DNA from: Dictyostelium discoideum
Lineage: Eukaryota
DNA length: 64,000 nt
NCBI GenBank assembly: GCA_000004695.1
Contig: CM000155.2
Span: 2,112,001-2,176,000 of the forward strand
Direction of reading: 5' to 3'
Below the pieces are notes generated by a model. It ran no database searches. It worked only from the letters and a program-made list of their open reading frames with translations, and had not been told where the DNA came from. Position numbers and translations under genes: made by a program. Shown one piece after another: positions 5,077 to 45,366 of the stretch. The stretch's first letter is position 1. Each line of letters begins with the position of its first letter.

Positions 5077-5137
<61 letters not shown>

Positions 5138-5211: not shown

Positions 5212-5495
5212 AAGAAAAAGAGAGGATAGTGATAACAAGTACTTAATTATAACGCATTCACACCACTCTTACTTTAGATTTTTTACAACTTTGATATTTT
5301 TCATTCACTAACCTTTTTATCATCATCATTATTAATATTATTTTAGCTGCTGATACATTACGTCAATACTTCACCCAATTAAGATTGGAGCTCGGTGTTC
5401 GTCTCTGCCAACGTGTATATGCTGTTGACCCATCAAAAGCCAACAAATGGTGGATTTGCTTCTCAAAGAGAAAATTCTTAAACAAAGCCTTATAA
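4342..5495 (+). CDS. arcC: Arp2/3 complex subunit 3 (ARPC3, p21-Arc)
   Basis: Three exons: 4342..4450, 4708..4974, 5347..5495; donors GTATGT and GTAAGT, acceptors tatag and ttttag; phases are consistent. Product: MVYHSQFNDESAGFRLVGNVPILPLKTTHKGPAPKGDANSVDIIDEALDLFKANILFRNFEVQGNGDRVLIYLTLYITKCLLK...WWICFSKRKFLNKAL. This aligns along its length with metazoan ARPC3 (MPAYHS...LIGNMALLP...KGPAP...RTLIYITLYISECLKK...KWWTCFVKRQFMNKSL). Confidence 0.9.
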
Positions 5496-5924
5496 AAAAT
5501 CAAACACCATTAGTAAGATAGACTGAAATTAGTGATCGATCATCACTATTTTTTTAAAAAAAAAACAAAAAAAAAAAAAAAAAAAAACCAAACAAAACCC
5601 AAAATAAACTTGCAACAATAATAAAACAACTATTTAATTAATCATTAACCTTTGTACTTGTTCATAAAAAAGAAAATAAAATAAAAAAAAAACAAAACTG
5701 TTTTAAAACATATTGTTTGATAAAATTTTATTTTTTTGAGAATCAACTGGCCATTAAAAATATCCATTCAAATAAAAAAAAAAAAACTGATAATAAAAAA
5801 ATTCAAACAGTTTGAATGGATTTTTTTGATGGCTTTTTTTTTTTTTTGAATTGGATAACGCAATTATTATTTGCTTCTCCTTGAGATGCTAGATCTCATT
5901 TTATTTTTTTTTTTTTTTTTACAG

Positions 5925-6160
5925 GGTCTTTTTGATTAAAACATCTTTTTTGTCCAAACTTTTTTCTAAATCTTTTTTTATTTTATCGTCTGGTTCGTGA
6001 TTGATGTTTATGACGTATTTGAATTGTTTTTTTTTTAATTGAGTTTTATCCACAATTTCGCTTATTTTTTGTAGGCATTTGTGTTGCTTAATATTTGTGG
6101 TGTTGTTTGTGATTTTCATTTTATTTTCTTTCTATCTTTTTTATTTTTCTGATTAACTTG

Positions 6161-6216
<56 letters not shown>

Positions 6217-6226
6217 TTATAGAAAG
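5925..6226. repeat. Segmental duplicate of 7662..7976 (ORF1 start plus upstream B-module-like sequence including a poly(T) run)
   Basis: 5929..6150 is near-identical to 7662..7905 (tttgattaaaacatcttttttgtccaaacttttttctaaatc...gattttcattttattttctttctatcttttttatttttc). Both copies end in taacttggg followed by 50-57 T. The copy yields the truncated ORF 5919..6119 (MKITNNT...DVLIKKTL*). Confidence 0.75.
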
Positions 6227-6512
6227 TACTGAGTGAATTATTGTATTTTTTGAGATGTTTAGGAAGTTCTATTGCGGGTGTTGATGATGATTTGTGACAC
6301 CCCTTGTCCTGTTTTATCAATTGGTGCGTGGTGTGTTATTTTGTTTTTATATTGTTGATTTATTGAGTAAATTTTATTTGTTTTTATATTTGTTTCAGTT
6401 AGAAGTGCTGCGTCCAGCTTGTTGTTGTCTAAAACGGTGTTTATTATGCTGGCAGATTGGATGGTGTTGGATCCTTGGACGTTCCAAACACCTATTCTTA
6501 TTGTGTTTTTCT

Positions 6513-7847
6513 TTATAGTTTTATTTGGGGTAGATTTTTATCTACCTTTTGAAGTTTCTGGTTTATTTTGTCTTCTAACTGATCTTTACTTTGTTCGTTG
6601 TGTTGTTGGTCTTGTGTGTTTGTGGGGTTTTTTGATTTATTGATTTGTTTTAGAATTTCCTTGTTGAAGTTGTCTATATCTTCATCCATTTTTGTTTTTA
6701 TGCTTTTTTGTCCATATTCACCCAATTTTGGTTTGACTGGTGTTTTGTTGGTCTTGTTTGTTTTGTCTTGTTGTTTCTTTTTTGGTGTGTTTAACAATTT
6801 ACTTGGTGAATCGATAATTTTCGATGGTGTACCATAGGTTGGGCTGAAACTCATGATATGTTTTATTGGAGAGGAGAAGAACCATTGATTTGAAGGGATT
6901 GAAAGTGGGAATTCTATTTTTCTTATTGCATCAGTGTTTGGGCTGGTGAAGTCGAAGATATCATTTGCCTCTCTAAGTTTTTCTTCCGTTGTTAGTCCCT
7001 TTGTTTCGCCGTGTTGTTTTATTGGTGTATTGTATGGAGATGGTGGTTCGATAGGTTTTTCTGATTTTGTTTTAATTTCTTGATTGTTTATCGATTGTGT
7101 ATTGATCTCATTCTCTATTCTTGTTAGTTCATCTACGTTTTCTAGTGATGCTTCTATTACCTTTTGAGCTGTATCATCTAGGGCCATAAATGTTTTATCA
7201 TTAGATGAGGATGTGATTGGTGGGATAATGATTGTTCTTTTTCCTTGTTTTGGTATTTGTTCTGATGTAGATTGTGGTTGTTGTTCATCTGATTGTTTTT
7301 TATTTTTGTTTTCTTCTTGATTTTCTGGTAATGAGGTTTGATCTCTCCATCCTTTGTTGGAGTGTCCAATTAATGTTAGATTGTCTAGTTCAATGATAGT
7401 GTCAAATTCTTCTACGACTCTTTTCACTGTTTTGATAATTAGAGTTTCGCCTTTAATTTCTGATTTAATTAGTTTACATCCTTCATTTTCTATTACCCAT
7501 TCTATTTCTGTGAGTGATTTATACCAATCAAAATCTGTATACATATTTTTTGGTCTTATAGTGGTTATAAATTGTCCTTTTAATTCTGCATCAAACATAT
7601 TTACAAAATAGATTACTGTACTAATACTGTCTGTGAGAATTTTGAATGTATTATTACTTTTGATTAAAACATCTTTTTTGTCCAAACTTTTTTCTAAATC
7701 TTTTTTTATTTTATCGTCTGGTTCGTGATTGATGTTTATGACGTATTTGAATTGTTTTTTTTTTAATTGAGTTTTATCCACAATTTCGCTTATTTTTTGT
7801 AGGCATTTGTGTTGCTTAATATTTGTGGTGTTGTTTGTGATTTTCAT
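6513..7847 (-). CDS. ORF1-like protein of the TRE5-type element (444 aa, Lys/Gln/Thr/Pro-rich, no recognisable enzymatic motifs)
   Basis: Uninterrupted 444-aa ORF (MKITNNTTNIKQHKCLQKISEIVDKTQLKKKQFKYVININHEPDDKIKKD...). Its first 63 codons and upstream UTR recur at 5919..6119. No RT/APE (ORF2) sequence follows, so the element appears deleted for ORF2. Confidence 0.5.
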   Translation of the reverse strand: MKITNNTTNIKQHKCLQKISEIVDKTQLKKKQFKYVININHEPDDKIKKDLEKSLDKKDVLIKSNNTFKILTDSISTVIYFVNMFDAELKGQFITTIRPKNMYTDFDWYKSLTEIEWVIENEGCKLIKSEIKGETLIIKTVKRVVEEFDTIIELDNLTLIGHSNKGWRDQTSLPENQEENKNKKQSDEQQPQSTSEQIPKQGKRTIIIPPITSSSNDKTFMALDDTAQKVIEASLENVDELTRIENEINTQSINNQEIKTKSEKPIEPPSPYNTPIKQHGETKGLTTEEKLREANDIFDFTSPNTDAIRKIEFPLSIPSNQWFFSSPIKHIMSFSPTYGTPSKIIDSPSKLLNTPKKKQQDKTNKTNKTPVKPKLGEYGQKSIKTKMDEDIDNFNKEILKQINKSKNPTNTQDQQHNEQSKDQLEDKINQKLQKVDKNLPQIKL

Positions 7848-7925
7848 TTTATTTTCTTTCTATCTTTTTTATTTTTCTTTAAAAAGTTAAAAATCTGGAA
7901 ATTTTCTAATTAACTTGGGTCCCCG

Positions 7926-7976
<51 letters not shown>

Positions 7977-7979
<3 letters not shown>

Positions 7980-8460
7980 TCTTTTTTATATGAAAAATGA
8001 AATAATCAAAAAAAGAGATTGTTGTTGTTGTTTGTTTTTTTCGATCTGATTATTTTTTGCTTTTTTTTTGAAAATTTTGCTACGCAAAATTCTCAAAACG
8101 AAACAAATAATAAATTACAATAAAGTAAAAAGATGGCTTTTTAAAATAGTTTATTTATTTATTTATTTGTTTTTTAAGTCTTTTTTATATGAAAAATGAA
8201 ATAATCAAAAAAAGAGATTGTTGTTGTTGTTTGTTTTTTTCGATCTGATTATTTTTTGCTTTTTTTTTGAAAATTTTGCTACGCAAAATTCTCAAAACGA
8301 AACAAATAATAAATTACAATAAAGTAAAAAGATGGCTTTTTAAAATAGTTTATTTATTTATTTATTTGTTTTTTAAGTCTTTTTTATATGAAAAATGAAA
8401 TAATCAAAAAAAGAGATTGTTGTTGTTGTTTGTTTTTTTCGATCTCATTTTTTTTTTTTT
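7977..8460. repeat. Tandem repeat, 199-bp unit x about 2.4 (unit starts 7977, 8176, 8375); putative TRE5 A-module array
   Basis: Near-identical units beginning aagtcttttttatatgaaaaatgaaataatcaaaaaaagagattgttgttgttg...gctacgcaaaattctcaaaacgaaacaaataataaattacaataaagtaaaaagatggc. The third unit is truncated near 8445. A 50-nt poly(T) (7927..7976) precedes the array. Confidence 0.7.
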
Positions 8461-8505
8461 TTTTTGATGGCCAGTTACTTCTAAAAAAAAATAATTTTAT
8501 CCAAT

Positions 8506-8577
8506 TCCTCATTGGTGTAGTCGGTAACACTCTAGTCTTTCACACTGGTACCTCGGGTTCGATTCCCGAATGGGGAG
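8506..8577 (+). tRNA. tRNA-Glu(UUC): tRNA-Glu (anticodon UUC)
   Basis: TCCTCATTGGTGTAGTCGGTAACACTCTAGTCTTTCACACTGGTACCTCGGGTTCGATTCCCGAATGGGGAG. The 7-bp acceptor stem, D-arm (GTAGTCGGTAAC), anticodon loop cTTTCAc giving TTC, and T-arm GGTTCGATTCC are all canonical. Confidence 0.9.
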
Positions 8578-8879
8578 CTTTTACAACGATTCCCCAAAGA
8601 TCAATGGATCGATTCCCATGGGCTCTTTAATTGAATAAGAGATACCGAATTAGTATACTATATTTTTTAAAAAGTGTAAAAATCAGCCACACAAGATTAC
8701 ACATATAAAATCAAAAATTTAAAAAATCTTTGGTGAAAGACCCTCAGTTTATTCACAATATAAATGACTAGATAATAAAAATAGTAATTGTATTACTACA
8801 ATAATTCAACAGATCAGAGCACCAACCAATGAAACCACACGAAATCCACCAAGGTCCAAACGATTTCCCTAATAATATA

Positions 8880-9300
8880 AATAAATTAAGAAAATTAACT
8901 CTCAAATAAGCTTATTGTATTCCAGAATCATTCCTAACAATTATCTTTCCACCAATTCATTTAGCTGATTCCAATTCTATTATTTTGTTTCTTTAAATAC
9001 AAGCATATTTTAAAATGGATATCTTTAAAAAAAAATATAATTATAACTATAATTAAAATTGTTTATTTGATATTTTAAATTTTAAAAAAATAATTTCCTT
9101 TAACGGATAAACACTGATTAATATTACTTTAAATTTGTTTCTATTCAATTCCAACAATCCATTTTTCAATTTTTTCTATCCAACTAAGTTTTCATTCCTA
9201 ACAAAGATAATTCACAACTGGAAAAAAAAAAGTTGGATGCCATAACCTATAACTTATAGGTTAAAAATTCTGTCAGACTAATATCAAAAATAAAATAATA
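8880..9300. repeat. Copy of an uncharacterised interspersed repeat (also at 62790..64000)
   Basis: Shared blocks: ttgtattccagaatca(t/g)t(c/g)ct (8926; 62797; 63914), aattcctttaacgga(t/a)aaaca(c/t)tg(a/g)ttaata (9097; 63262), and taacctat...ataggtt-like segments. Similarity is about 70-80% with indels. It lies 0.3-0.8 kb downstream of the tRNA gene, where TRE3-type or other tRNA-associated element relics occur in this genome. Confidence 0.5.
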
Positions 9301-9499
9301 CAAATTAACCTATGGTCCAAGAAAATCTGAAATAAAAAATCCAAGAATAAAAAAAAAAAAAAAAACAAATAATATGTATCATACAAATAAAATAAAACTA
9401 ATCCAACAAACTTGAAATTTAAACATTATAAAAAAAAAAAAAAATTCAATAATTAAATTAATAATTATTGGTATTTTATTATTTTTATTATTTTTATTT

Positions 9500-11946
9500 T
9501 TATTGTTTTCTAAATAAAGTTCTTTTTTGATTTCTAAATTCAAATTCATCTCTACCAACTAAAATATCGACAGCCTTTAAAATTGTAAAATGATCTAAAC
9601 CAGAACGAGATAATTGAAAACGAACATCTTTAATTCTAATACTTGAACCAATGGGTACTCTATCTTTAAGGTATTTTTCAGCGGTTCTAATATTTTCTAA
9701 ACGTTCAGGTGTTAAAGTTTCATTTACAGTATTATTGGTAGTGATTGCATCAAATGTTGAGATATCGAATAAACGAATTGCCTCTTTTGCATGTTCATTC
9801 GTAGCAATTGGAGATAAGGACATTTTTGCCAATGATTCAGAGATACGAATGATAGCTTCTAATTGACGAACAGTGATTGGAATTGCATTTTTTCTTTTCT
9901 TTCTTTCAGTTTCAACTGAGTTTTTTGAACCACCACCACCATAACTACCATTATTAATCATTTCTTGTTCTTTTGATTTTGCACGTACTGAAACGTAATG
10001 ATTTTTTAAAGTTGTAACGGCATCTTCAGATAAACGAGGACTAATTCTTGAACGAGCATATGCAATATATTTTTTCAAGTATTGAATTGTAACTTCATTC
10101 TCACCGATGTGACTATCATCAACGACAGTATTTGAAAGGTCATAAGTATTATTACCAACACTACCACTACCACCACTACGACTTGATTTCTCGTGAATAT
10201 TAATGACATGTTTTGAGATGATGAAATCACGTTTCTCATTCTTTGGATCTTTTACAATGAAAATTAAATCAAAACGTGAAAGAATAGTAGATTGAAAGTT
10301 AATATTGTCATCTGCAGCATCATTATAACGACCATAGACGGGATTTGCAGCGGCCAATACTGAGGTTCTACTATTTAAAATGGTGGTAATACCTGCTTTT
10401 GCAATTGATATGGTTTGTTGTTCCATAGCTTCATGAATTGCAACACGATCATCAACATTCATTTTATCAAATTCATCAATACATACTACGCCACCATCAG
10501 CAACCACCATTGCACCACCCTCCAAATAGTACTCACCAGTGGAGGGTTCACGAATTACCGATGCTGTTAAACCCGCAGCACTACTACCTTTACCACTTGT
10601 ATAGACTGAAATGGGTGCAACCTTCTCTACGAATTTCAATAGTTGTGATTTAGCAGTACCAGGATCACCCAATAACAAGAGATTAATATCACCTCTTAAT
10701 CTCATTTTATCGGGTAGTTTCTTTGAACTTCCACCAAATAGTTGACAACTAATTGCACGTTTAATATCTTCATGACCATAGATTGAAGGTGCAATTGAAC
10801 TTGCTATAATATTTCTTAGATCTTGTCTTCTTGAGAATACCTTGAAAGATTGTTCCTCAGAAGGTGTGAAATGCATTGAATCACGACCTGCATTATCAGA
10901 GGTAATACCCAACACTCTTAGATAATTGGTACGAATTGTACCACCTGCAATCTCTCTTCTTTTACCTCCACCCTCAAATATACCTAAAACACCCAACACC
11001 TTTATACGTGTACCTGGTGTAATTTTATCTGCTAAACTTTTATCCAATGATAATATAATATGACGTGGCATTTCACCGGTTGGAATTGTTTCAGGTGATT
11101 CTTGAAGTTTTAAAATCTGTTGATTTACAAATGTAGATTGATCCGATAATACCACATATGGATTGTTTGGACATGGTTTACCTGCATCATTTGATCCTCT
11201 CTCACATTGTTGTGGAAGTACAGATGATACAATGCCCGGTCTAATATGTAAGGTTTGGGTATGTTGACAATTTTTACATTTTACTACCATCGTCGATGGT
11301 TTTGGTTGAGTTCTACTCGCTGAAATAACTATACCTTGAACTTTTACCAATTTACTAATTAATCCTGCCCTTAAATATCTAATTGGTTCAGGATTAGCTG
11401 AACTCTTAAATAATATTTGAATATCTTCATCAACTTGTTCTTTATTATAATTCATTTCTTTAATAATATCTTTAATTGCATCTTCAAACTTTTTTTTTTA
11501 ATTAATAATATAAAAAAAAAAAAAAAAAAAATTAGTAAAATAAAACTTAAACATATAATTAAGGAGTAATTATTATTATTTATTTATTATTATTATTTAT
11601 TTATTATTATTATTTATTATTATTACTATTATTATTATTATTTTTATTGAATATACTTTACTGATGGCATTAATTCATTTGGTGAAGAAATAAAACGACC
11701 TGATAATTCTTGATTAAAATCTGTTAAATGATCAATACTAACTTCAATATAATGCCATCCTAAATTATAATGTTGTCTTAATTGTTCTTTATATATAAAT
11801 ACATTATCTTGATCCTTCCATTCATTTATAAATCTTTTAAATAAATCTCGAACGCTTGTATCTTCAACGAATCCATTGTTTTTTTTAAATCCACCTTTAC
11901 CTCCACCACCACTAACTGTTACATTTCCTTCATCAAATCCTGACAT
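9500..11946 (-). CDS. mcm5: DNA replication licensing factor MCM5
   Basis: Two exons: 11662..11946 (MSGFDEGNVTV...KEQLRQHYNLGWHYIEVSIDHLTDFNQELSGRFISSPNELMPS; donor GTAAAG) and 9500..11488 (acceptor aaaaaaag; FEDAIKDIIKEMNYNK...). MCM box IYGHEDIKRAISCQLFGGS, Walker A GDPGTAKSQLLKF, and the DEFDKM/SRFDLIF motifs are present. It is collinear with human MCM5 throughout. Confidence 0.95.
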
Positions 11947-44838: not shown

Positions 44839-45366
44839 TACTAATATATTTATATAATTTATTTGTTTGTTCTTTTATTTGTTGATATTACTTTTTTAAA
44901 AGAGAGAAAAAAAAAAAAAAAAAATGTATGATTTAATTTTGAACAATGAAATAATAAAATAAAATTTTTTTTGTTTTTATTTTTTTTTATATTTTTTTTT
45001 TCTATTTTTTTTTTTTTAAAAAAAAAAATTGTGTTTTTGGGAAATTCAAATAAAATTTAATTTTAGACGAAAAAAGAAAGAGGGAAAAGATTCAAAACGA
45101 GCCAAATCTAATTTTGAAAATTTAAATTATTTTTTTAATGTTGTTTACTTGAATTTATTTTTTTTTTTAAAAGTTTATTTTTTTTTTTTTTTTTTATGTA
45201 CATTTATACAATTTTTATTTGAAGGGAGAGAAAGAGTACATGAAAGGTAACTATTTCTTAAGTTCCTCTTGTTCTTCGTAGAATTCTTCTTCACCAGCCT
45301 GGATTTCATCGTTGATATCGCCCCAACCATATTGACCATGTCCATCTAAGAGGGAAAGAAGAGAGG

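Follow-up and report, generated by a model that had tools for sequence, protein, structure and literature searches.

An element of the TRE5-A.2 type upstream of a tRNA-Glu(UUC) gene of Dictyostelium discoideum, and its empty site

Upstream of a tRNA-Glu(UUC) gene in a 64,000-nucleotide stretch of the Dictyostelium discoideum genome (hereafter the window; assembly GCA_000004695.1, contig CM000155.2, positions 2,112,001 to 2,176,000 of the forward strand) lies a retrotransposon-like element with an intact first open reading frame (ORF1) and a large deletion in the second one (ORF2). Which element is this, and was ORF2 lost at this locus or before the element arrived there? Window positions 5834..8458 on the minus strand (2625 bp) are almost certainly a complete copy of TRE5-A.2, a known ORF2-deleted, non-autonomous retrotransposon of this organism. 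TRE5-A.2 was formerly the DRE deletion form, and the element and its integration behaviour have been described experimentally for decades; the copy near tRNA-Glu(UUC) is an ordinary, intact, textbook example of it. A preliminary description, made from the letters of the sequence, had placed a TRE5-A-like, ORF2-deleted element at 5790-8577. The element is real, while these limits are too wide: 5790 takes in 44 bp of flanking sequence and 8577 includes the spacer and the tRNA gene.

The structure of the element on its sense strand is A(2.4x)-B-ORF1-[ORF2 stub]-B-C-A14. The modular order of TRE5-A, A-B-ORF1(-ORF2)-B-C-oligo(A), is present according to repeat, tandem-repeat and BLAST evidence compared with the description in PMC3159450, and each part named in the preliminary description (A-units, a B-segment with the ORF1 ATG, ORF1, a second B-copy, a distal segment and an oligo(T)/(A) end) was recovered. 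A 199-bp tandem unit was detected in 2.6 copies at 7951..8467 by Tandem Repeats Finder (TRF; period 199, 97% matches), of which 2.4 A-units lie inside the element (7977..8458, minus strand). This A-array forms the 5' untranslated region (UTR) and, according to PMC3159450, the plus-strand promoter. It is 98% identical (BLAST) to the A-arrays at six other loci carrying an identical ORF1 (L001 to L006), two of which (L002 and L003) additionally hold full-length elements. The element's 5' end falls within an A-unit and reads A11-T-GAGATCG; several other copies begin at GAGATCG. The first 12 nt (A11 T) may be a mismatched stretch of the A-module or may be non-templated.

An internal oligo(A) of 49 nt on the sense strand (7928..7976, minus strand; a TRF T-run of 100% T) separates the A-array from the 5' B-module. 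The 5' B-module (7637..7927, minus strand, 291 bp) holds the ORF1 start codon (7847..7845) and is 97.6% identical to the 3' B-module of the autonomous TRE5-A.1 (L003 4955-5294). The 3' B-module (5930..6162, minus strand) is preceded by another oligo(A) run (6163..6212, minus strand; TRF and alignment to TRE5-A.1). Both B-copies share a 221-nt direct repeat (5930-6150 and 7658-7878, 100% identical, repeat family D4). TRE5-A is recognized by an A-module of about 200 bp and a B-module of about 290 bp that is duplicated in the 3' UTR, and these were found here with 199 and 291 bp (published B-module length 290 bp, PMC3159450). Compared with TRE5-A.1, a gap of 29 bp lies within the 3' B-module and a separate one of approximately 70 bp spans the B/C junction, so that the 3' B-module lacks its end and the C-module its start. 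The remaining 82 nt of the C-module (5848..5929, minus strand; alignment to TRE5-A.1) include the predicted 3' hairpins that would be needed for retrotransposition. The terminal 58 nt do not differ from the end of the C-module in a full-length copy, and two stems are predicted for them (-11.3 kcal/mol, z -2.6), which places the hairpin of the last approximately 54 nt of the C-module RNA here as a predicted fold. The element ends with an oligo(A) tail of 14 nt (A14, 5834..5847, minus strand; a T-run on the forward strand). For TRE5-A.2, the published structure is AB-ORF1-BC; ORF2 carries a large deletion, and 72 bp deleted in the BC region leave only 87 bp of the C-module, at its 3' terminus (PMC3159450).

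ORF1 (6513..7847, minus strand, taken from the ORF list) is intact and encodes 444 amino acids. Several proteins of D. discoideum AX4 share 99% identity with its product, and the exact ORF1 sequence is encoded on at least 12 contigs, with 14 listed in the cluster table. No family was found in a Pfam search of ORF1, which agrees with the statement that ORF1 of TRE5-A is similar to no other ORF1 (PMC5391098). The relation to TRE5-A ORF1 was instead established with TRE5-A primer sequences from the list in PMC4559204. The primer "TRE5-A ORF1 Rep-109" matches exactly at 7375-7403, and "TRE5-A ORF1 Rep-108" matches with one indel at 7716-7742, a match repeated in the 3' B-copy. The "TRE5-A ORF2" primers Rep-75 and Rep-176 match nowhere in the window, but both match the full-length relatives (L002, L003). 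Six oligonucleotides from the element gave zero matches in the full-text literature. With module order, spacing and orientation fitting PMC3159450 and PMC5391098 in addition to these ORF1 primers, the earlier assignment to TRE5-A held.

The ORF2 deletion was likewise confirmed and could be mapped to the base against full-length copies. Homology to a full-length copy (BLAST) runs from the 5' end to window position 6276 (L003 1763) and restarts at L003 4897. At this junction (6275..6276, minus strand), ACACCC is joined to GCAATAG on the sense strand between window positions 6276 and 6275. Compared with full-length TRE5-A.1, ORF2 has lost 3133 bp and its reading frame is broken; the junction shows 1 nt of microhomology. 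About 294 bp remain between the ORF1 stop and the 3' A-run, composed of 237 nt from the ORF2 5' end (6276..6512) and the last 63 nt of ORF2 (6213..6275, minus strand; aligned to L003 4898-4960), which comprise 20 codons and the original stop and are now out of frame. The stretch 6227..6512, with 47% A and 23% C on the sense strand, had been suggested to match the ORF2 3' end; this did not hold, as it is mostly the ORF2 5' end (the endonuclease N-terminus) plus the last 63 nt of ORF2.

The frame of ORF2 is open from window position 6537 onwards and overlaps the ORF1 end by 25 nt (6513-6537; L003 1502-1526). The resulting ORF2 stub (6259..6537, minus strand) consists of 87 N-terminal codons, five out-of-frame codons and a stop ending at 6259. 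It reads KSTPNKTIKKNTIRIGVWNVQG...LLTETN...GVSQIIINT, is identical to the full-length ORF2 frame of L003 until the junction, and includes the start of the endonuclease domain (IRIGVWNVQG...LLTETN). In the full-length ORF2, Exo_endo_phos was placed on residues 18-195 by a weak Pfam match (E 0.0012, 19.1 bits compared to a cut-off of 24.5), in agreement with the published ORF2 domain order endonuclease-reverse transcriptase (RT)-zinc finger (PMC5391098); the endonuclease assignment of the ORF2 N-terminus is based on this sub-threshold match and the literature. A Pfam search of the 92-aa stub itself gave nothing meaningful, the stub being too short. The only proteins obtained in a homologue search with it were two short Dictyostelium ones labelled 'hypothetical', and a PDB sequence search with the ORF2 N-terminus gave chance matches only. 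The ORF2 frame contains no ATG until past the start of the endonuclease region (first Met in L003 at 1817). Hence, ORF2 translation must start other than by simple AUG.

For the comparison of copies, BLAST was run with filtering; an unfiltered pass was dominated by homopolymer matches. At all six loci L001 to L006, an ORF2-less element aligns end to end with window 8467..5834 at 98-99%, and the features described are therefore not due to chance. From B-module to C-module (2053 bp), 0 to 2 substitutions were found compared to the six copies, all other differences being gaps. For five of the six, the neighbouring tRNA gene is a different one in each case (one for His, one for Ser, one for Ala and two for Val) and lies 45-50 bp away; each of the five carries its own target-site duplication of 13-15 bp. 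A 30-mer spanning the ORF2 junction occurs once in each of L001 to L006. Since the identical junction is present in six other copies, the deletion is not local to the tRNA-Glu locus; as judged from these sequences, it is an inherited trait of the TRE5-A.2 lineage that predates the insertion and spread by retrotransposition. The suspected non-autonomous deletion derivative is thus the known TRE5-A.2 and did not arise at this site. The full-length elements in L002 and L003 encode ORF1 followed by an ORF2 of 1047 amino acids with RVT_1.

The window is AT-rich and contains one tRNA gene found by ARAGORN, tRNA-Glu(UUC) (8506..8578, plus strand), the integration target, which contains an exact match to the published Glu(UUC)rev primer (8551-8573). 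The element on the minus strand and the tRNA gene on the plus strand face each other 5' end to 5' end across a spacer of 47 bp (8459..8505). The orientation and the identity of the tRNA gene had been given correctly in the preliminary description; the spacer, put there at about 46 bp, is 1 bp longer. In the literature, the main integration window is 47+/-3 bp, the 5'-end-to-5'-end orientation is strict and extra nucleotides are frequent at the 5' junction. The element is located between mcm5 (from 9500 onwards, minus strand) and a p21-Arc subunit gene ending at 5495, and orthologous intervals in other assemblies were retrieved via the mcm5 protein.

In one of these assemblies (GCA_054883475.1, L008), the site is empty and TTTTTTTGATGGC is present as a single copy. 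Window 9700..8459 (1242 bp) is 100% identical to L008, and window 5833..4800 matches it except for a 24-nt difference in poly(A) length. The two flank alignments overlap by 13 bp in L008 (11476-11488), which reveals a 13-bp target-site duplication. The empty site thereby fixes the element at 5834..8458, the duplicated TTTTTTTGATGGC at 5821..5833 (distal copy) and 8459..8471 (tRNA-proximal copy, part of the spacer), and the spacer to the tRNA gene at 47 bp. Target-site duplications, proposed earlier as a check, were accordingly found, and their length lies within the 10-16 bp range of TRE5-A (PMC9012585). With this site unoccupied in a genome that is otherwise nearly the same, the comparison indicates that the insertion upstream of tRNA-Glu(UUC) is recent and the site polymorphic. 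It is rather probable that the insertion is very recent and specific to this lineage, perhaps dating to laboratory-strain times, given flanks that are identical bar one homopolymer length and only 0 to 2 substitutions compared to the six copies. In the orthologous intervals of the more divergent strains L007, L009 and L010, the element is likewise absent.

A full-length TRE5-A.1 might have inserted at tRNA-Glu and lost ORF2 later by a local deletion, and the single clean junction with 1 nt of microhomology, flanked by both ORF2 ends, would suit such an event. The same 30-mer, however, spans the junction in six independent copies, all of them bounded by target-site duplications of their own and five of them beside different tRNA genes. 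The alignments to these six copies also run unbroken across the B/C deletion, and segmental duplication of the tRNA-Glu locus as their source is excluded by differing flanks and duplications. A local loss of ORF2 is accordingly highly improbable. The same low probability is assigned to a different tRNA-targeting element, TRE5-B or TRE5-C, even though insertion approximately 50 bp upstream of tRNA genes is common to all TRE5 elements and a C-module likewise terminates TRE5-C (PMC3159450). Both lack a 3' B-module (PMC3159450), which is present here; the published TRE5-A ORF1 primers match, and elements that carry the TRE5-A ORF2 primer sequences in their ORF2 share 97-98% identity with the element at tRNA-Glu. 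An ORF2 fragment in L010 that is TRE5-like yet truly different shows only 42% amino-acid identity. An assembly artefact, with a repeat misplaced into a locus that is in truth empty, has marginally more in its favour and is still very unlikely: an assembly with otherwise identical flanks lacks the element, and near-identity among TRE5-A copies makes misplacement possible in principle. Yet a perfect 13-bp duplication encloses the insert, and the duplicated sequence is single-copy in the empty site; the distance of 47 bp to the tRNA gene and the orientation are canonical, and the insert ends in oligo(A), none of which a misassembly would produce.

Several points weigh against the assignment to TRE5-A.2. 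The name is based on published primers and published structural measurements, not on an alignment to a type sequence, and the ORF1 and ORF2 proteins are unnamed in the databases, with every source entry labelled 'hypothetical'. The B/C deletion measures approximately 70 bp compared with the published 72, and the C-module remnant 82 nt compared with 87, the latter reflecting a difference in the length of the A-run. The endonuclease domain of the full-length ORF2 was detected only weakly by Pfam (19.1 bits, cut-off 24.5), and the contact with TFIIIB and mobilisation in trans, as assumed here, come from the literature.

By analogy with the published system (PMC3159450, PMC5391098), the A-module would drive plus-strand transcription, and ORF1 protein from the element would contact DNA-bound TFIIIB at the tRNA gene and set the position of integration. 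The ORF2 protein, with endonuclease and reverse transcriptase, would be borrowed in trans from autonomous TRE5-A.1, recognize the C-module RNA hairpin, nick the target and copy the RNA by target-primed reverse transcription (PMC3159450, PMC5391098). An oligo(A) tail, a target-site duplication and a ragged 5' end would be the expected products. For this copy, the lack of an RT combined with an insertion polymorphism and 0 to 2 substitutions compared to six copies indirectly suggests mobilisation in trans.

No difference of substance from TRE5-A.2 was found. Common to both are the AB-ORF1-BC structure, the large ORF2 deletion, the B/C deletion of approximately 70 bp that spares the 3' part of the C-module, an intact ORF1, the position relative to a tRNA gene (47 bp upstream, with the 5' ends facing each other), a target-site duplication (13 bp here) and the oligo(A) tail, while the A-module number of 2.4 is particular to this copy. 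TRE5-A.2 'lacks the entire ORF2' according to PMC5391098, whereas this copy and its six relatives retain 87 codons from the 5' end and 63 nt from the 3' end, in agreement with the wording 'large deletion in ORF2' in PMC3159450. Autonomous TRE5-A.1 (e.g. L003 1..5443 and L002 8002 onwards) has the same target preference and is 97-98% identical in A, B, ORF1 and C; it differs in an ORF2 annotated with 1047 amino acids containing endonuclease and RVT_1, a complete 3' B-module and a full C-module of approximately 137 bp. As with Alu and SVA mobilized by L1, and with ORF2-deleted L1 and I-factor copies, the ORF2 protein of TRE5-A.2 is supplied in trans by an autonomous relative, and target-primed reverse transcription and target-site duplications are shared. 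Unlike those partners of long interspersed nuclear elements (LINEs), TRE5-A.2 both retains and requires its own ORF1 as well as the parental 3' hairpin, and it targets RNA polymerase III genes.

The length of the A-array is highly variable among near-identical TRE5-A.2 copies, with approximately 2.4 units in the window, 8.5 in L001 (4226-5915) and 21.5 in L006 (1627-5915), where the copy becomes a 6.4-kb element owing to its A-units. A weak A-module-like match elsewhere in the window (44940-45011) proved on inspection to be a chance match in AT-rich low-complexity sequence. Tandem head-to-tail TRE5-A copies are found at several loci, with TRE5-A.2 directly before or after TRE5-A.1 (L002 5440-8017 and 8002 onwards; L003 1-5443 and 5473-8002), an arrangement that fits repeated insertion events upstream of a single tRNA gene.

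Before the insertion, the sequence upstream of tRNA-Glu formed a near-perfect palindrome of approximately 94 nt, CAACTGGCCATTAAAAATATCCATTCAAA ... TTTGAATGGATTTTTTTGATGGCCAGTT, located in the window at 5745-5833 and 8472-8478 and continuous in the empty site (L008, about 11400-11560). Its predicted DNA fold has -22.7 kcal/mol (z -6.9), and the retrotransposon is inserted 7 nt inside the right foot. The palindrome fails to align in L007, another D. discoideum strain. A poly(A) run in a p21-Arc intron (window 5079-5102), 24 nt longer than in L008, is the only other difference in approximately 2.3 kb of flanking sequence.

The interval from mcm5 to p21-Arc is structurally variable between strains (L009 10630-13965, L007 10486-12939). 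That of L009 contains no tRNA-Glu, while in L007 mcm5 and the tRNA gene are separated by approximately 2.4 kb of unrelated sequence compared to 0.8 kb in the window; no similarity to TRE5-A ORF1 or ORF2 was found in either interval. In L010 (11332-13200; Dictyostelium cf. discoideum, GCA_054859205.1), a different element lies upstream of the orthologous tRNA-Glu(UUC), facing away from it; it is a fragment whose translation matches TRE5-A ORF2, in the C-terminal part, at 42% amino-acid identity. Thus, this one tRNA gene was targeted on independent occasions.

The outcome is mainly one of annotation: the boundaries of the element are base-exact, both deletion junctions are mapped and the residual sequence is assigned mostly to the ORF2 5' end. 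A recent insertion at this site fits reports that TRE5-A is still active in D. discoideum. If the insertion is indeed very recent, the empty and the occupied site would naturally document the states before and after a TRE5-A.2 integration, here at 7 nt inside a palindrome's foot.

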